Positions 6,775-46,204 of a stretch of DNA of 64,000 nt are shown here, one piece after another. The position numbers were made by a program, and so were the translations under genes. The notes under the pieces are model-generated. The model searched no databases. It saw only the letters and a list, made by a program, of their open reading frames with translations, and was not told the DNA's origin. Positions within the stretch are counted from its first letter, which is position 1. Every line of letters begins with the position of its first letter. This DNA comes from Botryllus schlosseri (Eukaryota), in assembly GCA_051294905.1 (NCBI GenBank), contig CM119371.1, forward strand, positions 15,874,001 to 15,938,000. Direction: 5' to 3'.

Positions 6775-7819
6775 TCAACTCTATAATCGTACATCTGTTC
6801 AGAATCAATGACCACTTCATCTGTATTTCAAACAGCTATCAAAATGCAATGACATAAGCATGCCTCAAACTTCGAAAAGGCAACTTGACTTGAATTGTGA
6901 CTTGACTCGTGACTTGACTTGACTTGACTCGAGTCACCTTCGAAAATCGACTGACTTGACTTGACTCGAGTCAAAATGTGCAATGACTCGAAATGACTCG
7001 TGACTCGAAGGTAGTGACTTGATCCCAACTCTGACGTTCTATACATGTCGCGTGAATCAGAGGTGGCCAATTTAAAATCGAAGCTGTTGGATCGCGACTA
7101 ACACAGAATGACTTCCCGATACGCGACCCGGTACCCGTTATCGGTAGGCTGTTTCTATCTGGTTACTTCGTCCCTGCGTAGCAACAGAAGATATATCAAC
7201 ATCTCGAGTTTGTATGGTGTCAGGGTAATTGCCGTGTAGCTGTAGTGTAGAGATAAGACTGTTGGACAGGACAGTCATGAAATGAGATGCTATGTCAGTT
7301 TGGTGCTATGTGAGTTCGTCTCGAGGGCGTCGATCGTTTTGCTGTTCTCAAATCATGGAAGGACGCACCGCGCAGCATATTGTCTATCATGTGCAGTGAG
7401 ATGAATATAGGATCTCAGATAGCCGGAGATCAGCAAAATTATATTCTCGGCAGGATAATACTGAGCCGACTAGGTAATTTCAATTTCACGCGGACTTTCA
7501 AACTTGTGCTAGTGTAATAGGCCTACAAGAAGAAATTATTACGAACACACGGGTTCAACCTGTGTATCGCTAAAGTGCATCGCACTAGCTCAGTGGTTCT
7601 CAACCTTTTAGACCTCGCGGCCACCCGTTCAATGGGAAATAGCTCGCGGCACCCTAAACTGCTTAGTGCAGGGCCGGCCAACCCGTGGCCCGCGGGCCAA
7701 ATGTGGCCCGCGAGAAGGTTTTGATGGCCCGCGAGGTAATTTCCATAATTTCTAATATCATCAAAAATGGATTGCACAAATTGTGAACTTGCAAGGACAA
7801 CCAAAAATTTGATTAGTCT

Positions 7820-8293
7820 GGACTTGACTCGAGTCAATCTGTGTATTGACTCGACTTGGACTAGCATGACTCGAACCAAGTCATATGACTCGAGACTCAG
7901 ACGGCCAATACCAACATTTCATTGTAATTTCGAAGAATAGTAAAGTAACCACCCTATTGGGATTTCTTCTATTGGTATGGTACTTGAAAATGCGACCATA
8001 AACTGTTAAAAGTGAGGAAAATTAGTATATTATAAACGCGAATCATTCTATGACACCGAACAGAGTTATATAATTGGGTTTAACAAGACTTGGAACTGGA
8101 AACTGAGCAATCAACACGATGACTCAGACTCGGCGAGTCATAATACCATGACTCGGACTCGAACCTCTGCTCGATGACTTGGACTCGGACTTGACTCGGT
8201 GGTGATTGAGAATGACTCGACTTGACTCGAGTCAAAACTATGAAAGTGAGATTGACTTGTGACTCGGAGTCTTGTGACTTGGTTACAACCCTG
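7820..8293. mobile_element. GACTCGAGTC-family MITE, right part (end ...GGTTACAACCCTG)
   Basis: GACTC/GAGTC motif arrays, colinear with the element starting at 20690. Used as the reference for the split host in the inversion. Confidence 0.7.
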
Positions 8294-8612: not shown

Positions 8613-9430
8613 TAGGGTTACCATATTTTTGAAATCCAAATTCCGGACGCTCTTTATCGCCCACTAGCGGATTCCGAAATGAGGTATGAGCACATTGTGG
8701 ATCAATATGACGTTACGCTAGCAAAGCTTTGTCTATCGACTAGAGGTGGCCACGATCCGGTGCAAGAGTATGTGATTGTGTGTTGTAGGCTGTAACCAGG
8801 GCCGAAGCCACATTTTTCAGCCTCCTCCCGCCCAAATAAACACTGATCTTGCGCTTAATATATGGCTTATGCAAATACATATGGTTTCTATATGCATCAG
8901 GTCGTTAAATGATTTGAATGAATTATGTCAATAATATTGGTTCTTCCATATATTACTATATAATTTGATCCTCTCTCCGCCCATATGATCAGAGTTAGCG
9001 GTAGAGCAGGCGGAGGATGATGAATTCGAAAATGCAAGGAGCGTAATTGTACATCGTTAAGTCATGTCCAAACGGCCTAAACCGACTTTATGAACATACC
9101 GTTATCTTGAAATTGCGATAACAATTAGACTCATTTCTGTAACTGAAAGTTAATTTTGTTTATTTTTGATCGCAGTTTTGCGAGGGTGGTAGTCGATCTC
9201 CACCTTTAAACCAATATACATGATACTAAATCGCGCGCAGCGCGAATAAAATTTTCATGTAGCATAAATCTGCCCGAAAATAATACTGTTTATCTTGATT
9301 TAAGAAGAATTATGAGCTTATACTTCAAAATTCCGGACATTTAGGCATATTTTAGAAATTCCTCCCGGACGCAGTTTTAACAGTGAAATTCCGGACATGT
9401 CCGGGAAATTCCGGACGTATGGCAACCCTA
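8613..9430. mobile_element. Non-autonomous hAT (Blackjack/Tip100-like TIR TAGGGTT(A/G)CCATA)
   Basis: TIRs are TAGGGTTACCATA and TATGGCAACCCTA, with CCGGAC subterminal motifs. Direct repeat TGCTATACGTC (11 bp) at 8602-8612 and 9431-9441. Confidence 0.9.
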
Positions 9431-9863
9431 TGCTATACGTCGGCAGTTACGGAATATAAATGAAGAATATCGGCCTGGTGTAAATGACCAATGACCATAG
9501 TAGTCGACAAACACCAGTGGCGGCTCGTCCTATAGGGCAACTGGGGCATTGCCCCACCTAAAATTCTGTTCAATAACAGTTCTTTACCATAGACGCACAG
9601 CAATCTATATATACCGAAATCACAGCAAAAATCGTATTCTTCTTGTCCTTTCACTTGTAAATGCCCATATATATAGCGAAGTCTCTGCGAAAATCGAATT
9701 CTCTTCGTGTTTTCGCTTTGCAAATGCCTAGCCGGGGCATGCCCCGGTAGCGCTCATAACAAGCTTTCACTGTCTATTCTCTCAAAGCTGCGCACAATAA
9801 AGAAACAGTGATTTACTCTCTCCTATTCATAAAATGACCGAGCAACCGGGGCAACATAGCCTA

Positions 9864-15565: not shown

Positions 15566-16174
15566 TATTGATAAGATACGACAGTGGTGCTTATAGCCTT
15601 ATGAGGCTTTGTGCTCCACGACAATGGCAATTTCAACAGTTCAATACATTTTTTCTTCGCGACTTTTCTTGCTCTCTCTCTCTCTTCCACACGCATTCAT
15701 TCTTCGAATCTTTGCCGCCTATTTCCAAGCTCGGCTTCGTACTTTCTGGGCTTTTGAAGTCACTGCAATCGCAGTGATTTTAATAGGAAACATACCCCGA
15801 ATCTACCTTCTCCACCATATATAAAGCGGTCACCATTTTTGCCATGAAAACTGTTAAATAGTACTCCAAACAAGTTTGAGTATCTTGTTATTGACCCCAT
15901 CTGGCCATTAGAAACCTGGATGAACGTCGAAAATGCGAAAAAAATGATGGGGCGGAGAATATAACCAATAGCCATCTGTGCATCTGCTGAATATTTAAAC
16001 CACTCCTGAAAGTTGGCTCATTCTTTTTATCTGTGCACGAGGCTGTTACTTATTTTACCACGAATGTTACATGCTATGGATTGAAAACAATCCGGTTACG
16101 TGTTTCGATATGGTATATTTCAGCCTTGTATACTGTTGTAGCGGTAGAATCGATTGTGAGGTGTTGACTCTGAG

Positions 16175-16517
16175 AAGGAGGTAGTCTACAAAACATCTAA
16201 AATTCATCGCGGTTCTCTGTTGTGAAAATTGAAAGCCAATGGGAAGTTTTCCGACGTCACAATAAGATGAGGACCCATCGAAGTTATGGCGCATAAATGC
16301 GTGCTGACCGCATCGACGCAATATTTTAAAGGGATGTTCTCGAATGACACTTACGAAGCCAACACCGGCATTATTGACTTCCCCTCCGCAATGACTCCTG
16401 AGGTTACGAGGCAATGCGTCAACTTCATTTATTTGGGAACCACGGAGATATCTGCGCCAATAGCAAGAGGACTACTTGATGCTGCGGAAATGCTGCAGTT
16501 GCCTGAACTGCCTAAAC
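16175..16517 (+). pseudogene. Truncated BTB-Kelch pseudogene, paralogue of 2600-4216
   Basis: Colinear with the first ~114 codons of the 2600 gene. ATG is replaced by AAG (16175), there are two in-frame TGA codons before the AHKCVL motif, and homology ends abruptly at a hAT TIR at 16518. Confidence 0.92.
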
Positions 16518-19465: not shown

Positions 19466-20005
19466 TATAAGTTTTTGTTGCAGTTAAATTCATAGAAAAT
19501 TGCATTTATTTTTCACAAAAGTTGCAGTAAAAAGTTAAAAAGTTGCATTTATTTTTTCACAAAAGTTTCACTAAAAGACCGCATTTTGGTCGGTTGACTA
19601 AAAAAAAAGGCCAACTTCCCAGTTCCACTCCCGAAATACAGTTTTCCATCAACATTCTCCATTGGTTGACTAAAAAAAAGGTCAACTTTCCGGCTCAGCT
19701 CCCGAAATACCCGTTAGAGCGTTACTTCAGTGCTGATTTACGGTATTTCAGTCGAATTTGGCCGTGTATTTCACCAAAATTCTCAAAAAACAGTTACATA
19801 ATCAAGCGATCTATTTAGATATAGGCCTACTGCCAAATATTTCCAGTAAAAAGTTGATCGGAAAAAACTATCATGAAAAATCGAAAAAGTTGCACTATAT
19901 CATTCATTCAAACATCTTAAAACAGCATTCCACATAATTTCCGAGTATTTAGGAAGCTGCAGGAAGCTGTAAAAAAAGATGCAAAAGTTGCAAAAACTTG
20001 CCCTA
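19466..20005. mobile_element. MITE with AAAAGTTGCA motifs
   Basis: Right end is AAAACTTGCCCTA and the left end is degenerate. TSD ATCATAAC at 19458-19465 and 20006-20013. Confidence 0.7.
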
Positions 20006-20689
20006 ATCATAACTATTCATAGAAGCAAACAAAAATTGTCTACTATAGTTTTGTGGCATATTCAGAGGTCAATCAGAGGGAAGCTTGGAGCCGCGGTTAG
20101 GAATCACTGATCTGAAAGATTTTAGGGAATAAATTAACAATAAGAGGGTATTGCTTTGGGTAAGTCTCAGAAAGCAACAAACTCACAGTACTCGAATCCG
20201 AATCGAACATCAATTTCCGTGATTTAAGTTGAGCAGTCATAGCCGATTTTAGAGTGGGGGCCTACGTAAACTTTACATCCTCATGACTAAGATATATCTT
20301 ATCAACGATGATTATCATTTTGCTAATTTATATACCTTGAGTTTCAAAACCTTGAATATCCACCAATACAAACCGGTGTTATGCATGGCCAGTCGCGCTC
20401 CGTGCAAAAACAAGGAATGCCTGTGAAGCAGTGATAGAACCGCACTGTTCACTGACATATATTTGAACTCTTCGTGTCTGTATTATTTTGATGCCATTAA
20501 AATGACACAACGATTCGTATTCGAATCGAAATTGAACCACTCAGATACTCGACTTTCCGGTTTCCCCAGCCCCAGAGCAATTTACTTCTTGTTGCATTTT
20601 TCCTGGCCTTCCTTAAAGCTTGGCAAGCAAATTCAGTGCTGGTCCCGCACAAGGATAGATAGGAAGCATAACGAAATATATCCTGACTA

Positions 20690-21286
20690 CAGGGTTGTAA
20701 TGACGCGAGTCATGACTCGAATCGCTTTTTGATGACTCGACTTGACACGAGTCATTTCTTCAAATGCGTAAAGGACTCGACTTGTACTCTGGAGTCATTG
20801 TGCATGACTCGAACCAAGTCATATGACTAGAGACTAGGACGGCAAAGACAGACATTTCATTGTAACTTCGAAGAATAGTAAAGTCACCACATTACTGGTA
20901 TTTCGTCTAACAGTCCTGATACTTGGAAGCAATGTTCCCTCTAAGCTGCGCACGTGCGCAAATGCGCAGTGCTTTCACTGTCTCTACGCACAGAAAATCT
21001 AAGTTGCGCACAAAAAATCCGAAGTGATGACCTTTTTTAGTCGTTACGCACTGTTTTCCTAGAGTCTGCGCAGTGATTTGGCGAGTGTGCGCAGACTCGT
21101 CAAAAATTAGAGGGAGCATTGCTTGGAAGATAAGCCATAAACTGTTAGGACTGAGGATTTACGACATTATGAATGCGAGCCATTCTGTATCACTCGAGCA
21201 GAGTTGAAAGAAGTGGTTTGAACCGGATTGAACTCAAAACTGAACAGTGAACAGTGAGCACAATGACTTGGACTCAGACTCTATAG
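20690..21286. mobile_element. GACTCGAGTC-family MITE, left part (right part displaced to 31413-31567, inverted)
   Basis: Left end CAGGGTTGTAATGAC. Colinear with 7820-8130 up to GACTCAGACTC. Confidence 0.8.
20930..21121. mobile_element. CAATGTTCCCTCTAA-family MITE (nested)
   Basis: TIRs are CAATGTTCCCTCTAA and TTAGAGGGAGCATTG. Perfect TSD CTTGGAAG. Confidence 0.93.
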
Positions 21287-21637
21287 TAGGGTTGCCATAC
21301 GTCCGGAATTTCCCGGACATGTCCGGAATTTCACTGAAAAATCTGTGTCCGGGAGGAATTTCTAAAATATGCCTAAATGTCCGGAATTTTAAAGGCTTCA
21401 AGCAGGCTCAATTTTTTTTCGTAAATCAACATAAACAGTATTATTTTCAAGCAGATTTACGCTATTCAAAATTTTTCATCGCGAGTTAATGCAACGTATG
21501 TAGATATTAGTATGGGCGCCTGGCACTACTCTCGCCGAAAATGCAATCAAAATAAATATAAATAACTATCACTTACTGAAATAAGTCTGATTGTAACCGC
21601 AATTATAAGATATAACGGTACATTCTTAGAGTTGGTT
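21287..21637 (-). mobile_element. Right half of a TAGGGTTGCCATA-family element
   Basis: Reverse complement of ~9080-9430, preceded by CTCTATAG. Confidence 0.85.
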
Positions 21638-22334
21638 AAATTCGAGAGACCATTATGGCACGCGTAACTTATTGCCGATAACAACCACTATTTCCAGTCC
21701 AGACATGAACCATAAGAATTTACAGTGTAGCTACATTTAAAATGCTGCCATGCTAGAATGGATGAAAATGGTTTCATGTTATGCGGGGGAAAAGTTTGTT
21801 GCTGTTGTTAATGTGAAGCGGTGTTCTATCACTCGGACACTTGGTGTTTTGACGTGGATCTTGTATTATGATAATGAACAAGATCTAGAGCAGGTGACTC
21901 GAGTCATCACAACCCTATCGCTATGCAAGAAACAGAACTTCTTGTTGTTGTCTATAAGTTTAACTGTATTAACATATTTGATAAAAATATAGCCTAATTC
22001 GCATGTTTGGTTTACCGTTTGGCTATTCAGGAAAATGAAGAATCATTGTAGATTGCACCAATTCTATGTTTAAGCCGATATCAGGCAATTTTCCACTCGC
22101 AAATTTAAATTATTTACCCCCGTTTGTTTGAAAGCAATCTGATAATTGCCATAACCTTTAGTTAAATTCCTAGAATCGACAATCTCACCCCTAAATGGAG
22201 GGAAACGTTGATGTTATTGTCGGTGCATTCTTTAAAAAAAACATGCAACGTCTTTGGAATTGTTCTGATTGCAATATTGTATATCTGTTACGTTTTTGCA
22301 GCATAATATGTGTATACCTGATCTCCTATGAAAT

Positions 22335-23923
22335 ATGGCTCCAAAAATATGTTCCTTCCATCCACGATTCATGCTCGATTCCATGAATGTATTGAAAAAC
22401 AAAGAACAGGTTTGTGACATCACATTAGTTGCTGGCGAAGACGAAATCAAGGTTCATAAATTTGTGTTGATAGCCGCGTCGGAATATTTTTACGCCATGT
22501 TTTCGAGTGATACAAAAGAGTCAAAGACTGGAATTGTCTCATTCCCTGATACCCCTGGGGATGTTGTGAAACAATGCATCAACTTTATTTATACCGGGAA
22601 AGTTGATTTTACTTTGGATCACATCACTGATTTCATCAAAGCATCGGATTTCTTTTGCCTCCATGATTTGACGCATCTCTACGTTGAATTTCTTTCCGAG
22701 AATGTCACCGTGGAAAATGTAGCGGAGATGCTATCGGTGGCTCTAGTTTATCAGAAGGAACTTTTGAAAACCACCATTCAAATCTTTTTTCGGGAAAATC
22801 TAAAGGCATTTGTTGAGTCACAGGAGCTGCAGTCATTACCAAAAGATAACTTCCTTTACTTGCTGTCTCTTGTGAAAAACTGGGGTAAGAAATATGAAAT
22901 ATTGAAATGGAATGCTGTAGCGAGCTGGATCAAGTACGACATGGATAGACGAAAAGGCGTCTTTGATGATTGCTTCCAGTCAATTGATCTGACATTTCTT
23001 CCCCAGCAATTTATACGAGAAAATGTTGTTCCTGAGACGTTGGTGACTGATTCGAGGAAATGTTTGCACAAAATAGTGTGTCGTGATTATGCATTGGAAA
23101 AAAATCCGAAAGTGCCACCGGCTTGCAGTGAACAGGTGACTGGCATCATATCATGTGATAAGAAGTCTAGGACGGTGTACAGTTACAGCCTAATGGAAGA
23201 GCAATGGTCGGTAGTTATCAAACTTCCTCCGGTTATAAAAAGTGATTGCCTTGATGTTGTTGAATATACAGGAATGATATATGTCACAACCGGCAATTCC
23301 CTCTTCAGTTACGATGGATTTGAATGGAAAAAATTGTACGAGAATGATTCGAAGGAAGAATACAACAGGTGTATCAAATGTGGAAAATACATTGCGATGG
23401 TCACAAAAGGACAAGCAGTCCTATATGAAATTGGCGGTGGCAAGTCAACATCAATTAAAATCGAAAGAAATGGACTATGGAGTAGTAATACATTTGCTGT
23501 TAGGAGTCTCGGAGAATGCATTTATGTCATTGAATGTTTTAATAATAAGCTTGCTTTTAAGATCAATCTGAGAACCTTGCAATGTACCCAGATTTCATCG
23601 ATGCCAATTTCAGTCACGGAGGGATCTGCATTCGGTTATAACGGGATTGTGTACTGTATGTTATCAGTAACAATTTTATGAAAGTTGCGTTTTACAATGA
23701 TATAAGAAAGCAATGGGAAGTTATTCCAGGTCTCAGCATTGGAAAATGCTACTCGGGATGCAAAGTTCATATCACAGACAAGTTGTATATATATGGAAAG
23801 CAATTGGGAACAGAGATAGGTACTGTAGAACTGGAAAAATTCGTAGTGTCTGAAAAAGATAAGCAAGCTCCTACTACGAAAGATGTGGATATGAGTGTTT
23901 GTTGCCTGTCATTTTCGAAATGA
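22335..23923 (+). pseudogene. BTB-BACK-Kelch gene with one frameshift near the 3' end (pseudogene, truncated allele or sequence error)
   Basis: A 448-aa ORF carries the BTB motif (VCDITLVAG...VHKFVLIAASEYFYAMFSSD) and a BACK region. The overlapping frame 23678-23923 holds the family C-terminus (KLYIYGKQLGTEI...DMSVCCLSFSK). The frame change maps to ~23658-23662. Confidence 0.85.
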
Positions 23924-24389
23924 TGGGTGCTTATTTTTGACCAGTGATTTTCGGCTTGTGACATATCTGAATGTTGGAAGTGTTTCATTTGCAAATTAGG
24001 ACACTATAGTTTGAACGTGGTTGCCTCAATGAACTTGACTAATTTCCTGCAAATCAGTTTCATGATTTTTTTCAAATAGTAAGCAATATCTTTTTCCAAA
24101 CTACATCGCCGACCCTTCCGAGATGAAAATTTGTAAAAAAACATAACTCTCCCTTTCGGCATACCTGAAACACAATGTTTTGACATGACAAGGCCACAAA
24201 AATTATCACCGTAAATACTATTACCGTATATTAGAAAATGGTCGAAAAAAGAGTGGATTTACATCGCTTCTAGGAACTGAGGAAAATTCCGTGTGCATCG
24301 GTCTTTCGGAAACCTATCAATCTAACCACCTAGGTTATTAAAATCTGGAAAAAAATCCGTACAAAAACAGCTCTACTGCCTGTAACGCA

Positions 24390-26449
24390 AGTAGTAGTAC
24401 AGATCGCTCGTGACCTGCAATTGTTTCTTATGGGCCCTCTGGTGATTTGCCTCGAAATTCGTGTTCGTGATGGTACCCTTTAGCCCCCCCCCTATCGCTT
24501 GTGATGTGCCATTCTTTCTTATGAATTGTTTCTGATGAATTGCTCTTGTGCTGATCAAAATCTTAAAGTGAAACCTCGTAATGTACATTTCACACATTCG
24601 ACAGGGTGTGAACAGAGTTTAACACGGAATAAATGACGCCGCCCGGAGTCCAAAGTGGTATTTTCGTACTGTGTAATGTGCGTATGTTTCAATTCGATGT
24701 CGCAAATTCCGACAATAAAGTATTGTACCGGTTGTTAATCAGCAAACGAAATTGTTGTTTCATCTTTAGTCTTGGTTACTGGAAACAATTACATTTGTAA
24801 AATATTCTCTGATATCCGCGATACGCAGAGTAATTTGTACCAAATTGGCGAGGAGGGGCCTAGGTAAACCTCCAGCACTTAGATATCGGAATTCGGATGT
24901 CGACCTCGGTCGGACTCGAACGTGCTCCCATTGGTGTTGCAGTCGCGGACTATACCACTGTGTGAATAATCCGACAAACACGAGGTCAAAATTCTCAACA
25001 TTATTGATATTAGTGATTACCATGGTTACAGACTTTGAATAATATTATCCTGATGTCAAGGTGACAAATTACAATATTCTGATACGATTCAACTTCACTT
25101 GTACCGCGAGTGAGATTTCAAGTTGGTAAATTAACACATTGATTGAATATTATCATGATTCTTATGACGCAACTAAAGTCAACCCTACTCTAGAAGCGTG
25201 AAAACATATAGCGACTGTGTGAAAAATCGTAAACGGAGTTGAAAGTTGGTCAAGTCAAGTAATATTTAGTTTCAAAAAGAATAAACTCCTAAAAAGATTA
25301 GAGTTATACCGACAAGTGATAATTTTTTGGTATTCAAGTCGTCGCCGGTGCGGTTCTGTTATTCGTTACCCTCGTGAGCGCTCGTAGGATTTTACAATTA
25401 TTTTACACCTATTTGAGTATGCGGTAACCTCACAAAGGATTAGGGTTAGGACGGAAATAAGTGACAATTTGTTGGTATTCAAGTTCCCGCCGGTGGCGGT
25501 TCTGTTATTCGTTACTTATTATACTTATTATTTTTCCAGTGAAAGCGGATTCTGTGACAACTAAATACCTAAATATTACCTTGTGAGTGATCGGTATGGC
25601 TATGACACCAAGTATTGAAAGATGACTATGTATGAGGTGTTATCTTGTGAGAGAGTGATCGTAGGATTTTACAAATATTTCACACCTTTTTGAAGTGTTA
25701 GTTTGTGAGCGCGGTTCTTGTCGGTTTACCAAAATATTACCATGCGATTAATTCCTAGATTTAGCAAACTATTTCACACCTTTTTGAAATGTTAGTTTGT
25801 GAGCGCGGCTATTGTTGGTATTCAAATCGCCGTCTACGCCGGCTCTGTGGTAAACTATTACCAAATATTACCTTGCAAGTGATTCCTAGATTTAGCAAAC
25901 TATTTCACACCTTTTTACTGAAAGTACGACATGCCGTCGCAGCCTATACCCGAAAGTACGAATCACCGCCGAACCCATAGGAATAACGATATATTGGTGT
26001 CACAATCACCGTAAACGTTAGGATTAACTTGAATCGTTCATATTCAGTAATTTTGAATATGCATATTAGGTAATGGTGTCACTCATTCTGTACTTGATAT
26101 TCAACACCACTTCTTCAGAGATCCCTATACCTGTAACGTTAGTACACTACCAAGAACGGCAGGTCATCAACACGACGTATACCTGAGAGGGTGGCATCAC
26201 CCACGAGATGGCAGGTCATCAGCGATAGGGACTCGAAAAGGGTGGGGTCACCAACACGAGTTTTCACGGCAGGTCACGAGCGAGCGCTATACCTGAAAGG
26301 GGTCACCAGAGGGCCCATAAGAAACAATGGCACATCACGAGCGATAGGGGGGTCTAAAGGGTACCATCACCAACACACGAGTTTCGAGGCACATCACCAA
26401 ATGGCCCATAAGAAACAATTGCAGGTCACAAGCGATCTATACTACTACC
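24390..26449. mobile_element. 2-kb DNA element with ~150-bp TIRs, superfamily unresolved
   Basis: 24390-24525 is the reverse complement of 26312-26449 (GTAGTAGTACAGATCGCTCGTGACCTGCAATTGTTTCTTATGGGCC). AACGCA flanks both ends. Confidence 0.8.
24846..24965 (-). mobile_element. tRNA-derived SINE fragment
   Basis: The minus strand reads CACAGTGGTATAG...GTTCGAGTCC (B box), then GGAGGTTTACCTAGGCCCCTCCTCGCCA (shared domain). Confidence 0.7.
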
Positions 26450-26789
26450 AACGCAGCGCATAGGTCTGTGTGTGTCTTACATTCCCCGTATGACGTTCTG
26501 CTGTACGCTGCTAGATATCCTTCCTCAAATGACCGGGCTCAAAGTAAGTGAATCGTCGGCTTAACTCAACATATCACGATGCCTGTCTCGTAGAAGTACA
26601 TGCAGATTCTGTTGTTTACCGTCCTCATGATGTAGTGTTTTTTGAACTCAATGCAAATTTGAATGTGCATGTGTAATTGTGCATATTATTTTTGAACAAT
26701 GCATATATATATATATTTGACACCTGTAACACATCTTATCTATGTTTCTCATGGCAACCAAAGATATGCCTATTATGACAAGTCCTATC

Positions 26790-27826
26790 AGGGAAGCGAG
26801 TGGCGCAGTTGGTTAAGCGCCAGCGTCACGTCAACAATGGTGGTGGTTCGATTACCGATTCGGACTAATTACTATGTGTCGGAGGTTCTATGGCAGTGGT
26901 TCCCAACCTTTTTATCCTAATTCCCCACTTCCGATTTATTCCGAGCCTAATTCCCCACCTAAAATCTCTATGTCCATATCTACCCTTTAAAGTGCTACCT
27001 CCAATAAAATTCTGCGAGCCTTTGCTTACGTGCTATTGGTGATTGCTAATATCCCCGGAATTGATCAGCACACAATAAAATGCAGCGGTGAACTGGTAAC
27101 CGTAAACGCGCCACCGTAAATATATGTATCTCCCCCGGCGCGCAGCCAACAGAAAAATAGGAGGGGTTTGAAAAGTTTCCAAATATTGCGGGGTAGCATC
27201 AATTTTCATGAGTATTAAATGCCGAGTAATACATGGGTCGGTTAAACTTCCTGGTGTTTACGAACTTATGCGTGCTATATATATATATATAAGCCGTCGT
27301 TAACTACACTTTCGCACAATACTAAAAGAACTTGAAATAACATAACTATGTAATTTCATTTGTAACGAGTCCGAATGTGCTATCAATTAGCGAGTCCACG
27401 ATCTCACTTGAATACATATTCATTGTTCAGCAATATGAGCTCTATTACAACGAATCATAATTTTTCTATCACTACGTTTCGTGACCGATGATGGTGTACA
27501 AATGAATAAAACTATTCTGGAGATCGCGTGTTGCTATCCAGGCGATTCTCGCTAATTGGAGGCGCTGATAATATGAATCGCTGAATTGCAAATAAGCTAT
27601 GAAATATTCGGTCGGCATTTCAAAACGACATTTAATAAAGGAGAATATTACTGTAAAGATTTTTTCAAAAGTGAGTCTATTCCCTACCAGAAATCCCGAA
27701 ATTCCCCACCAGTGGGGAATTCCCCACCGTTTGGGAACCACTGTTCTATGGGCTCCTCATCGCCGACCTCACTGCAGTCGCAGTGACTTGAAAAGCACAG
27801 TGGGCCCAGCTATAAGTCGGCAGCAA
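26790..27826 (+). mobile_element. tRNA-derived SINE split by a MITE
   Basis: A box TGGCGCAGTTGG and B-box-like GGTTCGATTAC. After removing 26894-27743 the body reads GGAGGTTCTATGGGCTCCTCATCGCC...GTGGGCCCAGCTATAAGTCGGCAG. Confidence 0.8.
26894..27743. mobile_element. hAT (Charlie-like) MITE
   Basis: TIRs are CAGTGGTTCCCAA and TTGGGAACCACTG. Perfect TSD TTCTATGG. Same family as 56965-58321. Confidence 0.93.
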
Positions 27827-28065
27827 AAAGAGACGATGATAAAGCGCGCGTGACAGAGACCGCTTGAAGAGAGTGCCTGAGAGAGTGCAAGAACGAACAT
27901 TCAAGAGACAAAGAAATGCATATTCATTGTACTGTATAACTTGTAATGCCGTGGAGCACGAAGCCTTAAACAGGCTATAAGCACCACTGATGTGAATGAT
28001 ATTAATAATAACAAGTCCTATCAGATATTATTTTAATTTGATAGATAACAATGTTGGGAATACAT

Positions 28066-29320
28066 CAGAGGTGGTCAAATTAGTCAAGAAAGCTACTCAA
28101 GTAGAAGTAGAAGTAGCGACGAATGAAATCTACTCAAGTATGAGTAGAAGTACTTCTTCCATAAGCCACCTAAAACTACTTGAAGTAGAAGTAAAATTGA
28201 CTGACTTTAAATCTATTCAAGTAAGTAAGTAGTTTTGAAAACAGTCTTAATTCGTCTGCATGGACTGTCAAAAGCTGCAAATTGAGCTATGTGGTGCGGA
28301 GAGCTTGATTCGTTTTGATGCATCCATGGAGGTATCAATTTTCGACAGAATAAGCATTCTTTCGTATAATGGGATGCAAATTAGAGTATTGGTATAAAAA
28401 TGCCATACTAACCCTTTGTTTTCAAGAAGACCCCGTTTCAGAGAATATCATTGCATGGCGCCCTACCCCATATTATAAGTCCCCAAGTTTCGGCGAAAAT
28501 CAGTTCGGAGAAGTTGCATCGGATACGGTTTCAACACTTTGCGCGATTAGTATAAAAGTTAATAACAAGTATTGTGGATTGTAAAAGTTATATTTAGTGT
28601 GGCTTTATTTTCGGAAAATAGAGGCATTACTACTCTTGCTTTTATGCTTCAACATGTATATTCGGCAGACAAAAGAGCTGAAAGTAATTAGAACTCAAAG
28701 TATGATACTCGGAATTGAAAGTGAAATATTTATTTCATGTCTTTTGTCCATAAAGCTTCAAAGGTGATCTGCCAAAACAGGTGTAACGTTCAAAAAAGCC
28801 GGATTTTCCAGATTGGCAGGACACGTCATGGGCTGCTAGATTACGATATGATAGATAATTGCTAGTTTGCGAAACGGTATTTTCAAATGTTATGGTGGCG
28901 GTGGGCCATATTTACTGTGATGAAATATTTGATAAGGGCGACAATGCGGTGTGAGCGGAACCAAGCAATCCTGTACCTAAATTATATTCACTGATACTTT
29001 CGTGACAACATATTTGTCATTCCATAACTACTGTGTTCGAAGCGCAACAAAATTTCCGGGATTTACTTGACTTTTATGAATATTAAATGTTGGTACTCCG
29101 TGAAAACAGCCCCGAAATTCCTCAGGCTATCTTTCGTATTGGGAGATTAGATTACTTCTACTTGACAAACCGCAAATAGCGAAAAGTAAGTAAGTGGATC
29201 ACAAAATATTACGAAGTAGAAGTAGAGAAAATCAGATCTACTTGAGTAAGTACCAGAAGTAGAGGAAAACTACTTGAGTACTCCCAAAAAGTAGAAGTAC
29301 TTCGTTACTGACCATCTCTG
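28066..29320. mobile_element. hAT-type MITE with AAGTAG arrays
   Basis: TIRs are CAGAGGTGGTCA and TGACCATCTCTG. TSD GAATACAT/AAATACAT. Confidence 0.88.
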
Positions 29321-29415
29321 AAATACATACCTAAAAATTGAAGTTAGTTCCGGTACTTTGCAGTGATGAGCGAATATTGATTTCTGAGAAACCGAATCCG
29401 TTCGATAGCTTAGTC

Positions 29416-30931
29416 CAGGGGTTCTCAACTTCCCTTGCATAACGGGCCGCATTTTAACAGCAAAAGACGCTGCGGGCCGCAGAACAATATTACCATGTAT
29501 TTGTGGGCTAATATTAAATTTAGGCTACTCTAGCCTAATTACCAGCCGTATACGGTTATTTAGTACATTTTTATGCATTATAAAGTAATAATGGACAGCG
29601 TTCGTAAGTTTGCAGCTGCTGCTTGTTGTGAGAATATATAGTATAGGCCTATCTTCTAGCGGCGCAAGTAAATCTTTTCATGGAGGGTACATTGCATTCG
29701 TTGCCAAGTCGGTATATGCAACTTCGAACCCTACCACCAGAGAACCGAACTCCCTGTTTCAATGCGTGAGCGAGCAAGTATAAATTACGGTAACTTTTGC
29801 GTTACAGAGGCCATTATCACAATGAGCTCTGAGTGATATGAGAAGAAGTGGCATTCCGGGCCATTTCTGTGCAAACCAATCACCCCTTAGCATTTCCTTC
29901 CATGCCTGGAGCAGAAGCCGGCTTTGCCAAGTCGATATTTTTCGCTGGTCCCCTCCCCACGTTTGCCCAGCCAGCATTTCCTCTGCATATATTATGCCAA
30001 GTCGGTGGATTCGTCCGAGGCTGGGTTAAAGTAGTATACGCGGCAACGTGTTTCAGAACATGCGATAAAAGATCGACTGGCAATAATGTTACTCGTCTGG
30101 TCACGATTGAATCGGACGACTGTATCTTAGAAATTTGTCAGGTGATGTTGCCCTTGCCGCTAAGTTCCGGAAACAGCAAATATTCGCACATAATGTTAAG
30201 GTTTTATTGAAATCACACCTTCTATAGCACATTTCTTGGGTTTAGCCATATTCTAAGCAATTTTGAACGATACGTCTGTCACGTAGTCGGCAATCTCAAC
30301 AACTGTTCGCATCGCGTCAAACACTCTTTAAAAGTGTAGGCCTACTACATAGCGGGATTCTCTTGAATCCGATTCCAGCCTAATACCGATTCAAAACAAT
30401 AACAATCTGAAGTCGAGCATATATCAAGAAACGCCCCATTAAAGCAGTGGTTCTCAATCTCTTTTAGACACGCCCACCTTTTTGAAAGGGAAAAAATTTC
30501 GAACCCCCTAACGTCATATAACAAAATGCAACCAGAATGCTAGGAATACAAACGGCTAGTTTGATGGCATGGAAGGTTATGACTGTTGATGGGATAATTC
30601 TCAAATATGAAACCAGACTATACACGGTGAAATAACTATGAATTGGAGATAAATTGCGGGCAGCGCGAACATTTTTTTTCAGTCGACCTCATTTTCGCGC
30701 CCCCTTCAGATCCTTTCACGCCCCAAGGGGGCGCGCGCCCCAGTTTGAGAACCACTGCATTCAAGAAATCAAAAGAAACAGAGACGGTACGATAAAAGTG
30801 CTAAGAACCAAAATTAATTTGTAACAATACCGTGTCAGTAGTACTTGCGTTATAATGAAAGATGTCGCGGGCCGCAAAATAATCGTCTGTGGGCCGCATG
30901 CGGCCCGCGGGCCGTGGGTTGAGAACCCCTG
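29416..30931 (-). mobile_element. hAT Buster-like deletion derivative with transposase remnant
   Basis: TIRs are CAGGGGTTCTCAAC and GTTGAGAACCCCTG, with perfect TSD GCTTAGTC. The minus strand at ~29995-30200 gives frameshifted CEYLLFPE...ISKIQSSDSIVTRRV...ASDESTD, matching the Buster LSxxTVxRR and DESTD motifs. Confidence 0.88.
30445..30757. mobile_element. Nested hAT MITE
   Basis: TIRs are CAGTGGTTCTCAA and TTGAGAACCACTG. TSD CATTAAAG/CATTCAAG. Confidence 0.88.
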
Positions 30932-31412
30932 GCTTAGTCTCTTATGAACTATCCGTGTGAATCCGAACAATCCCAACCGAAAATCCATGCGAATCCGACT
31001 AAGGCCTAACAGAATCCGGAAAATCCGAATCGAATAACTTTTCCGAAGAATCCTAATTTTACAGCTGATCTGCGAGTAGTTGTTAATAAGGCTAAGGTTA
31101 GGGTTAGCTGATATATATTTGCTGGGACATAACAAATTTAGAGTGTTACCAGTCCTGTCAGAACGTGTTTGATGTTTGTGTTTGGTTGTCAAGCTGACGA
31201 TTTATTCTTTTGACTTGAAATCACGTCACGTCTGGTCAAAACTATCCAAAAATATCCGAAGGAGAAGTTACAACTATCCGAAAATAGCCGAAACAAAATC
31301 CGCGACAGAATACAAATCCGATCCTACTGTCTCAAAATTGTGCAAAATTCGGTCCGAACCCTATCTGAGTCTGTCCGATGATCATCACTGGTACTTTGTC
31401 GAACACCGTCAG

Positions 31413-31567
31413 AGGGAGTTGCAACCAAGTCACACGGTTCCGATTCACAAGCCAATCTCACTCTTACAGTTTTGACTCCAGTCTAATCTAGTCATTTTCA
31501 ATTCACCACCGAGTCCAAGTCAGTGAGTAGAAAGTCGAGTCCGAGTCATTGTGTTGTGACTATAGAG
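31413..31567 (-). mobile_element. Right part of the GACTCGAGTC MITE that starts at 20690, inverted
   Basis: Its reverse complement aligns with 8137-8293. Confidence 0.8.
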
Positions 31568-32067
31568 TAGGGCTACCATATTTTTGTGAAGCAAATCCCG
31601 GACACTCGTTAGCGCCCACTAGCGGATGTTAAAATGAGGTGTACCACATTGACCGTCAATATGACGTCACAATAGCAAATCATTGCCCATCGACTGTATG
31701 CACTAAACAGGAATGGAGTGGAACATAGGTCATGAATCGGGCCATCTGTAGTGTGGGTTCTGGTGATTGCTACTTGCTAGGGTCTACAATAGATTCCTCT
31801 ACGTGCCGGATGATATCATCTGGCGGGCCGTGTCTGGCCTGTAGGATTGTGTTTGAGAGCCCTGCGGTTGGTGCGGTTATCTGTTTAAGTGTTTTAATCA
31901 GGTCCGAAAGAACATTTTTCTCCCCTTCCCCCTTCCGTCCAAAAAAGTACTGATCTTGGGGCCACCATAGGATAGTCGATGTTACTTGTTGGGCACTTAC
32001 TATATGCATTTGGCTGTTAAATTTTATGTAAGAATTCTCTCAATAATATTGATTCTTCCATATATTA
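31568..32067 (+). mobile_element. Left half of a TAGGGTT(A/G)CCATA-family element
   Basis: Colinear with 8613-8955 and preceded by CTATAGAG. Confidence 0.85.
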
Positions 32068-32589
32068 GGCCAATGTAAAAAGCACCAACAGGTTGCACAT
32101 CCGGTGATTTCCAGCCTATTATGGTCGCGACCTCATTTCCCATTTGAAAATGATCCGTGGCATAGCTCAAGACTTGATAAGGGGATTACTAAAAAAATTC
32201 AGCTTGCCCAAACTTATCTAACGGCATAGGAAGCCGATTACGTCCAACATCATCGCGATCCCCAGATAATGGCGAACGACCGCAAGATTTGGAACCCCTG
32301 TCTGTGACCGATAAGCATCCAATCGACCTTAATAATTAATTAGACAGAACGTTTCTCATGACGTTGCAGCCAATTCCACTCTGGATTCAAGTATCTCACG
32401 ATAATACCGTGCTCTAACAAAAACAAAATCATTTTAATCTATTCAACCGTTTACTGCGTAGCTACGCTGTAAGTTGCTATGATTCAAGTTTCTCACTGCC
32501 ATGACAAGCCCTGTCAAGAACAAATCATTTTCATCTATTCAAGCATAACAAGCGTTCACACAGCGTAGTTACACTGCTAGTTGTTATTA

Positions 32590-34790
32590 GTCAAGTATCC
32601 AGGCATCTCGGTCCCCAATTTTCCTCCGTATGAATATAATTGGTCTGCGATATGAGCTTTGCATCCGTCAATGTATTTGATGGCGAAACCCCGAATATAT
32701 GGCCATTTCTTTGTTACATCATTGTAAAGTACTTCATCTGAACCATGACTGATGGCATACACACTACACCAGGGGTCTCCAACACGCGGCCCGCGGGCCG
32801 CATGCGGCCCGCGAGGTCCTATTTTGCGGCCCGCGACCTGATTTGAACATATTTCAGAAAAACGCTTAGTAAATCATTTTTAAACGCTGAAAATTATTTC
32901 AATTGAAACATAATGTTGTTGTTGTTCGAAGTAAGCCATTACACTGTGCCCAATATCACTATTCCTTACTAGTTGATACGGCTTCGACATGGTAATATCA
33001 TTCCATGGATGAAGAATTTGCTGGTACGAATGGGCATAATATTGCCTTGACGTGCAATGGCCCACCACTGCCAAGACTGAGACGCGTGAAAAACGACTTC
33101 GGGCTCTCCAAAAGACCATGCTTTACGAGGAGATAGTTGTTTAGCAAGTAGGCCTACCGTGTCTAGCTAATCCAAATATTGATTCTTTAATCCAATGGTG
33201 GCCAATCTGCGGTAGTAGAAGGGAAATTATGCGGCTGTCGACACTTTTGATAACAACCCTACGTTTTCTAAGATACCCCCTGCATCAGCTCTATCGGTGA
33301 ATCTGATCACATTGGCCGAGAAAGGATAAATATTTTATAGTAATATGTGAAACCATACGAATATTGACGAAATTCACTAATAAACATGAAAAATTTTTCG
33401 CGCTTCGCGCGACTACAGACCGGGGTGTCCTGTGGCTATTACAACATAACTACTAACGATTTCGGTCCGCATAGTAAGCCGATGTGCATAAATTGATTAG
33501 TTCGGAGTGTACCGGCAATGGACATGGACAGTTTAACGTGGGCATTTGGCCCCAGCTAGTTTATCACGACTATAACAACCGGTATGCGGCCGCAGGCTAC
33601 ATGAGTAATCGAAAAGCGGCCATGAAGAGCAAAAATGTGGGCCACCCCTGTTTTAGCGGCTACAGAGTGTCAGGTATCGTGTACAGCTCATAGTTCAAAA
33701 TATAACGAAATTGGAAATTGATGATCATGATACTTTTGTTGTATTTGTGTTTGTTCAATAAAATATTATTTCTTTTGTGGTGACTATAACCGTCGCCCAT
33801 GTTAGAGAGCACAGCATTGTAATAACGAAGAGTTATCAGATGTGGTTGCTGAACTGCTTTGCCTACTTTTATATCGATATTGATGTCCTGCGGCCCGCGG
33901 CATCTCGGCATTCGGAAAAGTGGCCCGCGACCCATTTTGAGTTGGCGACCCCTGCACTACACAGTCTCATTGAACCCAAATATACACACTCTTGACTTTG
34001 ACCAACACCACTTATTGGTAAGTTTAAAATCCGGAAACACTGCATGGTTCTCAAGCTTATCTCAAAAGCGATTTTCCGTGATAAGTTATGAGTACTTGCC
34101 ACCAACGACATACATACACTTCCGTTTACTCGCAACAGAAAAGTTATACCAATAAGTGTCAGTAATTCTTAATTTGATATTAATTGATGACAATTTTCCA
34201 ATGCCGATTTCGTACATGACTAGGCCTACACATTTTCCTGTAACCATCAACACATATTTCTCACATCCAATACATCTGTTATATTGTTCGCGAGAATTGT
34301 TCTCATATAACTTTGTCCATACGACCAATCGACCATACTTTCCATTGAAACTAAAGGTTGCATTCCCAGTTGTAATATAAACGATTCCTTTATACTCAAC
34401 TACATCAAGGCATGCGGTTGCAAGACCTGTAGGAAGTTGCGTAAACACAGACGGTTCCTCTTCAATCAGGCTGTACCAGTACGCTAATCCAGTTTTACTA
34501 TTGCAAATATTATTCCCGTTGACTTGTCATTGGGAACAATAGGTGCGTTGCATAGTTCCCCGCAAAAAAAAAAACAAGTATATCACATACTTTTGCCATC
34601 AACTTCTCTTATTCAGATACCAACGGTTCACTAATAACGTGATTCTTGAGAAATTGGAGAGGGAGAAAAGAAAGCTCAATTGTGACTAATAAATCCACAA
34701 ATGCATCTTTTCTTTCGCCCAACTCATCTTTGACCTAGGTAACGACGGCATGCCTTTTCAACATTTCAAATTCCTTTCCGCAGTTCGGTT
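32590..34790 (-). pseudogene. Fragmented BACK-Kelch pseudogene, paralogue of the 22335 gene
   Basis: Three minus-strand pieces match the 22335 protein in order: GKEFEMLKRHAVVT*VKDELGERKDAF...LSFLPLQFLKNHVISEPLV (~34610-34790), CLDVVEYKGIVYITTGN...KLYENNSREQYNRCI (34086-34448) and VYAISHG...CKAHIADQLYSYGGKLGTE (32590-32762). It has stops and frameshifts, and the BTB part was not found. Confidence 0.9.
32770..33954. mobile_element. hAT (Charlie-like) MITE inserted in the Kelch pseudogene
   Basis: TIRs are CAGGGGTCTCCAAC and GTTGGCGACCCCTG. Perfect TSD CACTACAC at 32762-32769 and 33955-33962. Related copies lie near 58818-59157 and 62125-63200. Confidence 0.92.
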
Positions 34791-37773: not shown

Positions 37774-37953
37774 TGGAGGTTTATCTAGGCTCCTCCTCGC
37801 CACCTCATCCTCATAAGCGGTGTTTTACAAAAAGCCTAGAAGTGGGCCATGCTATAAGTCGGCAGTTACGGAATAAAAATGAAGAATATTGGCCTGGTGT
37901 AAATGACCATAGTAGTCGACAAATACCGTGAATACCACAAAAACAAACAAACC
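37774..37953 (+). mobile_element. 5'-truncated SINE (shared domain plus AAAC tail)
   Basis: Reads GGAGGTTTATCTAGGCTCCTCCTCGCC...GTAGTCGACAAATACC...AAAACAAACAAACC. It is the empty-site version of 8521-12923. Confidence 0.8.
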
Positions 37954-39520: not shown

Positions 39521-42408
39521 CCTACAGGGTTGGTGCGATGACATGCAAAATAAGGTCAAAAACATGCAAAATAAGGTCAGTAGCGACATGCAAAATAAGG
39601 TCAGTCACATGCAAAATAAGGTCAGTCGCGACATGCAAAATAAGGTCAGTCCGCGCATAAATCCAAATCTATACTTCAATTACTAATCCAACTTTTTTCT
39701 TATGAAAAATAAATTCAAAATATCTTTCCTGTATAACAGCCTACTTTCAACATTGAAATTCCTTATCTATATCCTAAATCCTGAGATGTTTCAATCAAAA
39801 GATAATCATGATTATCTTGATTATGAAGTCAGTCGCATGTACAATATTATTATCAGTCCACGCATAAATCCAAATCCACACTTCAATTACAAATCCAATT
39901 CTTTTTTTTTATGAAAAATAAATTCAAAATATCTTTCCTATATAGTAATTTCATGATTGACATTCCCCATCTATATCCTAAATCTGAAGATGTTTCAACA
40001 AAATGTAATCAGACGATTCTTACGATTACGGGGTGAGTCGCATGTAGAATATTAACAGTCCGCGTATAAATCCAAATATTTACTTCAAATCCTACTTTTC
40101 TCTTATGCCACTGACCTTATTCTGCAATCTGCATGTCGCGACTGACCCTATTTCGCATGCCCCTGACCTTATTTTGCATGAGACTGACCTTATTTTGCTT
40201 GTCGCGACTGACCTTATTTTGCATGCGGCTGACCTTATTTTGCATGTGACTGACCTTATTTTGCATGTCGCGACTGACCTTATTTTGCATGTGACTGACC
40301 TTATTTTGCATGTGACTGACCTTATTTTGCATGCAGTCCGCGCAAAAATCATAATTCCAAATCCAACTTTTTTCTACTGGAAATCAAAATATAAATTTTG
40401 TTACCTACACTACTTTTAACATTGAAATATCAAAATTCGAATGAAAATTCAGATATATGTCCCCGTGAAAATTGAAATTCCAAATATAGGGGAAGACTGG
40501 GAGCAATGTTACAGTGGTGGGTTGTTTCAGCCGTTACGAAAAAGTGGATATAAATGGTCAGGCCATTGTGTCATTATACCGCCTGCGTCACAAAATCTTC
40601 ATCCGTTGTTTCTGACTTTGTTTCGTTGGAATTCTTTGTAAAAATTTGCCTATCTGGAATGTTTCGAGTGTTTCATAATCTTAGGAATCTTATAATCAGC
40701 CATACTCATTCCGCGTTAAACATGATGAAAATTCTATACTCTCCGCGAATAGAGTCCCTGAATTTCTATGTCATCATCATCATCGGTTTATTGGCAATTT
40801 TATCAGTTCAATACACCACAATAACGCGATACTATGAAAAGACAGGAAGATACCGAAGCGACTTGGAGTAGTCTATGGAATCAGACACCCACCTTGGCCT
40901 AGGCGATGTAAAATAAGGCATGCACACTGAATGAAAGTAGAAAAGATAGTATAGAAAAAGAAAGCGACAAGAAACAGGGCGGCATGTCATGGAAATCTAG
41001 ATCGATAGGTCAGTCGTTGTCCGGTAATCTTGAGGATGGTCTGTATTTATTTAGTAGTAATTGCTTGTATTTCGACTTGAATGTGGACATGCTTGTCGAC
41101 TGTCGGATGGCCGGCGGAATACTGTTCCACACATCAGGTCCGGGATATTTGATAGAGCGATGATCTTTTCGGTCGATCATATGATATTTGGACGCGCGTG
41201 TGTTGTACTTGTGCGCTTTTGAATCCGAGGTAAAGTCATTTAAGTATTCGGGGCAACGACCGCAGTGGAACTGATACGTAAACGTGGCGATTTCTAGTTT
41301 CCGAATATCTTCTATGTTTAGGACACCGAATCTCTTCAGCAGAGACTTGTTGGATGGGCAGCCAGGCCCCTGGGCCCAGCCAGGCCCCTTGATGATATGC
41401 AAAATAAGGTCGCAATAAGTCGCTACACGCAGAATAAGGACAGTCTATGCAGAATAAGATCAGTCACTTGCAAAATAAGGTCAGTCGCATGCAAAATAAG
41501 GTCAGTCGCATGCAAAATAAGGTCAGTCACATGAAAAATACGGTCAGTCACATGCAAAATAAGGTCAGTCGCATGCAAAATAAGGTCAGTCGCGACATGC
41601 AAAATAAGGTCAGTCACATGCAAAATAAGGTCAGTCGCATGCAAAATAAGGTCAGTCACATGCAAAATACGGTCAGTCGCGACATGCAAAATAAGGTCAG
41701 TCACATGCAAAATACGGCCAGTCGCGACATGCAAAATAGGGTCAGTCACATGCAAAATAAGGTCGGTCGCATGCGAAATACGGTCAGTCGCCACACGCAG
41801 ATTGCCGAATAAGGTCAGTGGCATAAGAAAACAGTAGGATTTGAAGTAAACATTTGGATTTATACGCGGACTCTTTATATTCTACATGCGACTCACCTCT
41901 CGTAATTGTAATGATCGTGTGATTACATTTTGTTGAAACATCTTCAGATTTAGGATATAGATGGGGAATGTCAATCATGAAATTACTATATAGGAAAGAT
42001 ATTTTGAATTTATTTTTCATAAGAAAAAGAGTTGGATTTGTAATTGAAGTATGGATTTGGATTTATGCGCGGACCGATAATAATATTCTACATGCGACCG
42101 ACTTCGTAATCAAGATAATCATGATTATCTTTTGATTGAAAAATCTTAAGATTTGGAATATAGATAAGGAATTTCAATGTTGAAAGTAGGCTACTATACA
42201 GGAAAGATAATTTCAATTTATTTTTCATAAGAAAAAAGTTGGATTTGTAATTGGAGTATAGATTTGGATTTATGTGCGGACTGACCTTATTTTGCATGTC
42301 GCGACTGACCTTATTTTGCATGTCACTGACCTTATTTTGCATGTCGCGACTGACCTTATTTTGCATGTTTTTGACCTTATTTTGCATGTCATCGCACCAA
42401 CCCTCCTC
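39521..42408. mobile_element. Foldback-like element with ~0.8-1.0-kb modular inverted arms
   Basis: 39526-40335 is the reverse complement of ~41445-42404 (ends AGGGTTGGTGCGATGACATGC and GCATGTCATCGCACCAACCCT). The arms contain 21/24-bp CATGCAAAATAAGGTCAGTC(GCG)A tandem units. GCAAAATC is duplicated at 39513-39520 and 42409-42416. It is inserted in a (GATTAC)n MITE. Confidence 0.88.
40772..41365 (-). mobile_element. CR1/L2-clade LINE 3' end (ORF2 C-terminus, 3' UTR, (GAT)n tail)
   Basis: The minus-strand ORF reads LLKRFGVLNIEDIRK...HKYNTR...SIKYPGPDVWNSIPPAIRQSTSMSTFKSKYKQLLL, the typical WNxLP C-terminus. A CATCATCATCATC tail lies at 40772-40784. Confidence 0.88.
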
Positions 42409-44859
42409 GCAAAATCGGGTAGTAGTCGATTACGATTACGATTAAATTGGAAAAGTAATCACGATTACTCACGATTACATTTATTTTGCATCGTAGTAGA
42501 TATATTGGACGGCAATACATGGATTGCGCTGGAAAGGCCCAATGATATAACAACTGTCTTTAAAAAAGATGGACGTTTCCTTGTTACGTCATAATGTACC
42601 CATTGTCCATTTTATAGAGGACGGTTTATCGCACCCAATGATTTGCATTCTTGCCAGGTCCATAACTGCCGCACCCCCAATTCCCCAATAGGGTGGGGAG
42701 CGTGGTTGGAGGGGACTCAAAAGTATTTTGTAAACCAACATAAATTATAGAGCATTTTCGAGAGATTTCATTAACTTGGAATTTCTCTTTGAGCTTTGCG
42801 ATTTAAATGTCTCTAGATAGCTTGATTTCGAAATGCATACGTCTCCCCCTCCAGAAATAAAGCATGCATAATTCATAGTAATAGGCATTTAGGTGCCAGT
42901 CAATACTGCTCCTCGACACATCAAAAGACATATGCAGTTTCGGCCAACATGAGGCTCCACGAAGTGTGCTATTAAAGAAATACATTGGCCAAAACTTAGG
43001 GTATGTATCCATTGTTAATAGCCGCGTTGGGTGGGCGTGACTAACATTCCATTCCTTCCAATCTGAGCCCACGATGCAAATGCCACGCGGGCACCCACAG
43101 AGCATTAGACATGACAATTTTTGTGTGCGTCTCACGCAAGTTTTTCATTTAGTCTGCTGTTTGGGCCACTACAATCAATGTCTTTTGGCTATATAATAGA
43201 CAGGAGTTCACGAATTAACAACATACAATAAAGTAATTATTGCAAGACACCAGATGTTATATTTATGAATTACGCCCCCCTCCCCTTAGCTACTTATCAA
43301 TTTGAACGTGGATAGCGAAACGTTGTTTGCATTTTTGATGTGCAATGAGAATATCACTTCCAAGGCAGTTCATTTCTCGTCATCATTGATCATGCATTCT
43401 ACGTTAGTCGCGCGGATGCAATCTTTACATTTGGAATATTGCATAGATCTTTAAATAGTACTTTGGAATTACACTAAACATATGGCGATTGGCATTTGAA
43501 TTTTCATATTGTCTAGGGACGTATCCGCAGATAAAAGACTATATGGATCTGTGTCAAATCTCAGAGTTTAATTATATTGGAGTTCTTTGGGGTGAGGGTG
43601 ATTTGGTTCGATTCTTCAGTAGTTAAAAGTTAGACTGATAAAAATCGAATGCCTGGCAGTAACAGTGTCGCGGAGTCATCGTTATGTCAAACAAAGCACA
43701 CAGTTTTAGTTAAAGTCCAGTTTGCGTTGAATTCCAAGGTATAGAAAACCCGAGTCGCTACTTCTGTCATCAGCAACAGTTCGCAACGATTGCCATAGAA
43801 TCGATCATCTCTCATCACGAACATACGGGCAGTATCCTTTTGTACTTCAGCAAACGTATCGAATTAGGGAATTGGTGATATTGGTACTTACTACGATGCA
43901 TGCATGGTCAGTGGTCACTGTGCACTGTGTGCAGTTCCATTCGTCCTCGACGCAATACAAATAAAGTGTCGGTTTCGAAACTTGAAATAATTGATTGTTA
44001 TTTATCAACACAACAGCAAGCCCAGGTAACCGTATGGCGTATAACCACGTCGATATGAAACTGTCCGTTCCAATCCACCCTTGTTTCAGTTAGCTGGCAA
44101 TCTTTCGATGCATGAAAGCTTGGAATTATGACATACCAAGTTCAGAATTAATACCCAGGTGGCCAATTTCGAGCTAGTTCAAGACGTGGGCCACAAAACA
44201 TTTTCAAACCGGAAAATATACCATGACCAAAAATATATGTGATATATGAAAGGGAAAGAATGACGGTTTACCGTATAAGGTGGCTACGAATACATTGCAC
44301 GTTAGCCTATACATACATTGACGCTAAATGATTGCTGAAATTTGCGTTCTAGGTATTTCTAAGAGTCTCGGAACTTAATTAGTTATCTCATGATTCCGAT
44401 TGCCTCTTTCCACGTAATCAGCACACCGCAATCAATGTAGACGTACAGTATAGTCGCCATCAAAAGACTCTTCATTAACGTTGCAACGTCTCTGCGGACG
44501 CACCAAATTAGAAGTTACACCTGCGTCGAGAACGACAGTATTTTTTGTAAGCAAGAAAAATGGTAAAGTGCAGCAGTAACAAGTCGCAAAACCGTACGGA
44601 CGGAAAATGGCATGTGAAACTGCGCAATAGGATTTTTAAATCTCGAATGTCGTCGATCGGTACGAAGAAAATGAACGTCAAAGCTGTACCGCAGTTTGCA
44701 GAATACTACATCGCCGAGGAAGCTGTGAGGTAAGACTTGCAATAATGCTATACAGGCCTTGTCCGTTATCGTAACTGATATCACTAGCGCTGAGATCCCT
44801 CAAGTCATACGCATCGAATGTACAGTATATACAGTACTGTGAACGGGTATGGTGTATTC

Positions 44860-46158: not shown

Positions 46159-46204
46159 GTGTATTCTGCCAATTTCAAACTCAACGTGATGGTAAATCCG
46201 ATAC

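Follow-up and report, generated by a model that had tools for sequence, protein, structure and literature searches.

Of 252 human–chimpanzee inversions in one survey, 63 carry an L1 or Alu element at one breakpoint only; the parts of that paper drawn on here use the matching of target site duplications (TSDs) to find the ancestral state, and suggest microhomology or breakage (PMC2603318). In Drosophila mojavensis, 4 of 14 breakpoints lie between pre-existing duplicated genes, according to the portion of PMC3355041 used here. For ascidians, inversion polymorphisms, small ones included, have been reported in Ciona (PMC8186479), in a text that by word search contains neither 'breakpoint' nor 'transpos'. 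Here we describe a locus of the ascidian Botryllus schlosseri, lying in a stretch of 64,000 nucleotides that was analyzed as a whole (the window). Judging from its sequence, the locus is best explained overall by a real chromosomal inversion of ~10.7 kb with one break inside a transposable element, a reading we hold to be very probable.

Self-comparison and a motif scan of the window revealed an intact 818-bp element with TAGGG ends at 8613-9430 (plus strand), which we use as the reference. A related copy is present as two separated parts, each adjoining one copy of an 8-bp TSD:

21287..21638, minus strand: right part of the TAGGG-ended non-autonomous element (self-comparison, BLAST, motif scan)
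31568..32067, plus strand: left part of the element, secure extent (BLAST, self-comparison)
21279..21286, plus strand: TSD copy 1, CTCTATAG
31560..31567, minus strand: TSD copy 2, CTATAGAG (that is, CTCTATAG on the minus strand)

In the motif scan, the element ends fell at 21287 (plus strand), the reverse of reference position 9430, and at 31568 (plus strand), corresponding to reference position 8613. BLAST aligned 21282-21637 with reference 9437-9080 at 76.6% identity; over the right part, identity to the reference is 83% overall and 95% across the terminal 105 bp. On the other side, 31568-31695, 31895-31958 and 31997-32067 align with reference 8613-8955. The left part is 78% identical to the reference and spans 500 bp versus 343 bp, with ~157 bp extra. 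Comparison of the right with the left part revealed no overlap beyond short matches of 29 bp or less (E ≥ 0.13). Copies related to 31568-32067 are found at high depth in all four sequencing runs compared. The two TSD copies are exact reverse complements (8 of 8 bases); on the plus strand of the window, CTCTATAG occurs once and CTATAGAG three times. The initial annotation had described two complementary, non-overlapping halves that both point rightwards and are flanked by the same 8-bp TSD, and these data bear it out.

How often two independent insertions would share a target by chance was estimated from related elements. A scan of metagenomes with the terminal-repeat pattern gave 61 loci with 27 distinct target 8-mers. 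These loci share only the terminal ~25–115 bp with the element and probably come from another organism, and they are informative for TSD length and target bias, not for the junction; a metagenome scan with a pattern from the end of the left half returned 0 loci. An exact 8-bp TSD was present at 10 of the 16 related metagenome sites having both ends, and positions 4–5 of the target showed a T-A bias. With the profile from the 27 related-element sites, the chance that two independent sites are identical is ~3e-4, a figure in which the continuity of the host element (below) is not counted. The terminal inverted repeats are 13 bp long, and an exact 8-bp TSD also flanks the TAGGG element at 45320-45625; with such short terminal repeats and an 8-bp TSD, we take the element to be a hAT-like MITE. 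No hAT transposase partner with the same ends was evident among the 20 window ORFs considered. The reference element itself is flanked by an 11-bp duplication (8602-8612 and 9431-9441), versus 8 bp in its relatives, and an empty site at ~37849-37860 holds one copy of those 11 bp.

The TAGGG-ended element lies within another MITE, and this host is split as well:

20690..21286, plus strand: left part of the host MITE, with its CAGGG end (alignment, motif scan)
31413..31559, minus strand: right part of the host MITE (self-comparison, alignment)
7800..8293, plus strand: host MITE, reference copy (its centre and right part)

When 20680-21286 and the reverse of 31395-31559 were put together, retaining a single TSD copy, the product aligned through the join to reference ~7800-8293, in register, with 426 of 527 aligned columns matching. 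The proposal that the host was split in the same way as the element thus holds. In contigs carrying other copies of the host family, all four runs show an opposite-strand join of 21253 with 31515 or 31561. The family is therefore normally continuous at this point; these contigs do not represent the ancestral allele of the locus. The host's own TSD is partly kept (about 5 of 8 bases), and the outer flanks agree in part with a single insertion site; no older element running across them was found. A further nested insertion, at ~20927-21121 inside the left part, is bordered by an 8-bp duplication. Separately, 26 bp from an end of the host family stand alone, reversed, at 21892-21917, and no partner end or matching flank was found for this stub.

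A second link between the two breakpoint zones is provided by a short repeat unit:

21703..21774, plus strand: third copy of a ~100-bp unit
32384..32599, minus strand: two tandem units of ~100–107 bp, 69% alike, directly after a truncated Kelch pseudogene

The ~75-bp piece at 21703-21774 matches the reverse of 32522-32596 and of 32458-32489 (E 2e-5), and no other homology links 19500-22300 with 30000-32760. Its score against the reverse of 32068-32620 is 53, a value reached by 0 of 500 shuffles (maximum 39) and well above the best of 502 unrelated tiles (38). The ~100-bp units escaped Tandem Repeats Finder. Reversal of 21636-32332 brings all units into one orientation, with starts spaced 107, 100 and 124 bp. 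That the third unit thereby joins the tandem units is an indirect test of whether the far-site flanks belong together, and indicates that they do. Since all copies of the unit are only ~69% alike, whereas the TSD and ends of the element have diverged far less, the units would be older than the inversion rather than a product of staggered breaks. In keeping with this, no young inverted duplication was seen at the two breaks, where the shared piece is 69% alike and the overlap is 3 bp or less.

The positions that we propose for the breaks are as follows:

21636..21638, minus strand: near breakpoint, TAA (minus strand), common to 32330-32332; probable place, within a bracket from 21638 to ~21700
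21639..32329, no strand: putative inverted segment, ~10.7 kb, or 10.4 kb with the far break at 32067
32068..32332, plus strand: probable continuation of the left part, with a nested MITE inside, ending at the far breakpoint
32102..32300, plus strand: nested 199-bp MITE with CAGGG-type ends

The two 8-bp flanks of the nested MITE differ, giving no matching TSD. Once this MITE and the 8 bases after it are removed, 25 of 29 aligned bases match reference 9047-9078, the very end of the supposedly lost part of the element, adjoining the start of the right half. On this reading the last bases of the left part are TAA (32330-32332), the reversed right part opens with the same three bases, and the two join without a gap relative to the reference.

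Several tests of this refined far break were run, with different outcomes. In a random-place test designed after the match had been seen, with seven excision registers allowed in test and null alike, the score of the reference 9047-9078 match was reached against the final 50 bases of the gap by 0 of 3000 places and against the whole gap by 11 of 3000, none of them ending beside reference 9080. A post hoc test at fixed coordinates gave 3 of 5000. An unanchored scan for the right end was not significant and placed the best end elsewhere, and in global alignment under three gap settings the score was reached by 887–1969 of 5000 random places and 532–1074 of 5000 shuffles. Depth arithmetic is compatible with a far break at 32067 and at 32330-32332 alike. 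A break at 32071, in a short palindrome, had also been considered and was dropped once the match beyond the nested MITE was seen. On the sequence match we regard 32330-32332 rather than 32067 as the probable far break, within a safe bracket of 32067 to ~32385. The initial annotation had the inversion run from ~21640 to 32067 (~10.4 kb), with ~120 bp lost at the break. The inversion itself is upheld by the split element, TSD and host and by the third unit. Its far limit probably needs moving to 32330-32332, so that the segment would measure ~10.7 kb with little or nothing lost. The supposed loss is doubtful, as the end of that reference part probably recurs either side of the nested MITE, even though one test design was not significant.

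Together, the split TSD and the split host support a polarization of the inversion, telling the ancestral from the derived orientation. In the sequence of events that we propose, the host MITE would have inserted first, and the TAGGG-ended hAT-like MITE would then have inserted into it, duplicating CTCTATAG. Two breaks would have followed, one within the element and the other in an AT-rich spacer ~270 bp past the end of the decayed Kelch copy, and the intervening segment would have been rejoined reversed. Most likely the breaks were repaired by end joining across the three shared bases (TAA), losing few if any nucleotides; an overlap of 3 bp says little about the repair pathway where the DNA is AT-rich. 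No inverted repeat pair spanning both breaks was found in the window. The inversion appears to postdate insertion of the element, whose TSD is unmutated. The element would be a passive marker of the inversion, not its cause.

The segment carries a Kelch gene, and a decayed relative lies just beyond the far break:

22335..23923, plus strand: BTB-BACK-Kelch gene inside the inversion
32595..34785 (about 32590-34790), minus strand: Kelch pseudogene, truncated at both ends (protein and DNA comparison)

In the gene at 22335, the BTB and BACK domains score above Pfam cut-offs and the Kelch match is weak. The best protein database match (3 matches among 2767 candidates) is a kelch-like protein of Styela clava, at 30%. 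A frameshift near 23650-23660 leads to a stop at 23679-23681; removal of five bases there would give 527 aa. In run X8, from another sample, two versions of the 784-base span 23123-23906 each have 779 letters, with 5 gap letters. This suggests that the frameshift is private to the present allele, on the basis of the gap count rather than the gap position. The two X8 versions have identical ends and similar depth, and are 99% and 87% identical to the window; the pattern may reflect a very divergent allele or a converted paralogue. Contigs 87–90% identical to the gene were present in all four runs, pointing to closer paralogues or very divergent alleles elsewhere.

Relative to the 22335 protein, the pseudogene begins only at residue ~183 and is missing the C-terminal end, and its reading frame is broken by stops and frameshifts. 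An insertion of ~1.19 kb, accompanied by an 8-bp duplication, occupies ~32770-33955. Identity to the 22335 gene is 39–52% for protein and 68–74% for DNA. Within the window it is the closest relative of that gene (52%, versus 35% and 27% for others, over 128–129 residues). Undoing the inversion had been said to place the gene head-to-tail with its closest paralogue, ~1.2 kb away. The order after reversal is indeed head-to-tail, but the two are ~1.0 kb apart, and the partner is a pseudogene that is closest only within the window. This arrangement fits an old tandem duplication, and on its own adds little proof. The 5-bp frameshift (23650-23660) lies at about the position of the pseudogene's MITE insertion (~32762-32770/33956-33963); its extra bases look like an excision footprint, and one target may have been used twice. 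Other single-ORF BTB-Kelch genes and a BTB fragment (2600-4216, 16163-16516 and 59725-61332) form a dispersed cluster of mixed orientation in which the fragment is 80% identical to the 2600 protein.

The near break lies ~700 bp upstream of the 22335 gene, with a possible splice acceptor at ~22300. A more consequential version of events would have the inversion still segregating, triggered by a transposase cut at the nested MITE ~30 bp from the far break, and cutting the gene off from an upstream exon, promoter or co-transcribed partner. We consider this improbable. If true, it would mean an expression-altering allele in the fast-diversifying BTB-Kelch family.

Among readings that compete with a real inversion, an assembly or library artefact would mean that only the assembly shows the segment reversed. 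In favour of an artefact, neither junction is bridged by any of the 15 joints listed (of 2791) or the 32 pieces listed (of 224,074), and the best run contains only 0.56 of the sampled window words, so the runs compared probably do not include the source reads. These comparisons have a limited reach: the stretch or part of it is contained in 8 of the 11 runs listed, four runs were compared, at 85% likeness, and the small-share runs X5 and X6 contributed only repeat-family joints and depth. Because 85% likeness is too loose and repeat copies swamp the tables, the missing 21638-32333 joint is no evidence either way. Against an artefact, both reciprocal junctions are present and fit within a few bases, whereas a chimeric molecule usually yields one junction, not both. 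The breaks offer no near-identical inverted repeat to mislead an assembler, and the window has no gap and zero N. An artefact is thus unlikely, and we infer that the assembly depicts the real chromosome.

The duplicated TSD and the in-register host would also be expected if the whole host-plus-element compound had undergone inverted duplication or transposition, followed by complementary decay, the intervening DNA never having been inverted. Both copies must then have lost exactly complementary parts of element and host, leaving halves without overlap. Moreover, the unit at 21703-21774 goes unexplained, and the host's outer flanks behave in part as a single insertion site. We judge such a history very unlikely.

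Less likely still is that two inverted copies of the element recombined ectopically and that the second pair of halves was subsequently deleted. Textbook cases of TSDs matching across breakpoints arise in this way (PMC2775673 and PMC3355041, in the parts drawn on here), and the element family is abundant in the four runs compared. Such an exchange should leave two complete chimeric copies as well as two TSD pairs that have been exchanged, but a single set of halves and a single TSD pair are present, and no remnant of a second copy was seen after 21638 or 32332. With no homologous partner at either break and no second chimeric copy or TSD pair, ectopic recombination fails its defining tests. 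Aberrant (alternative) hAT transposition is the least probable source of the inversion: a nested MITE with unmatched flanks ends ~30 bp from the far break and a host-family end stub sits at 21892-21917, but the reverse complement of that MITE's right flank is absent from the plus strand of the window, 21638-21645 matches neither of its flanks, and, with neither junction at an element end and no new split 8-bp duplication at the locus, the mechanism fails.

Several other repeats were recorded in the window. An internal segment of the TAGGG-ended reference element (8905-9040) is shared with three other repeats (~33255-33390, 52445-52550 and ~57950-58080), at least one of which has CAGGG ends. 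An element at 39526-42404 has inverted repeats of ~810 bp (93% identity), tandem units of ~21–22 bp inside, and a central ORF-like stretch at 41010-41444. ORFs at 5783-6835 and 51024-51525 are 85% alike over ~460 bp and resemble parts of Penelope-like elements, namely their reverse transcriptase end and GIY-YIG endonuclease. Complex repeat pieces lie in both orientations at 44856-47188 and 49737-50721, one of them split by the 306-bp TAGGG element at 45320-45625; this set may record another rearrangement.

A real inversion at this locus would be a clean case of one that can be oriented and placed in time from a single sequence, by means of nested transposon scars. It illustrates local reshuffling of a Kelch gene cluster and is of modest importance in that respect. 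Applied genome-wide, scanning for split TSDs could count small inversions without an outgroup.

Both the type of event and the TSD logic are already known from the parts of PMC2603318 cited above, and the rearrangement is neat but ordinary. As in the human–chimpanzee cases described there, an element spans one break and the other break lies in non-homologous DNA. Unlike in those cases, the element is a DNA-transposon MITE nested in a MITE, and orientation was read from one ascidian genome with no outgroup. In the portion of PMC3355041 that covers Drosophila inversions formed by breakage and end joining, the breaks likewise share no homology and one lies between duplicated genes. The Botryllus locus differs from them in that it has no long inverted duplication from staggered cuts (its shared unit, 69% alike, is as old as the tandem units next to it), spans a much shorter segment, and has a pseudogene as one of the two duplicates. 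With the Galileo and BuT5 inversions, as presented in the parts of PMC2775673 and PMC3355041 used here, it shares a TSD found as reverse complements at two breakpoints. In those inversions there are two chimeric copies, and two TSD pairs have been exchanged, whereas here one element was cut in two, leaving one TSD pair.
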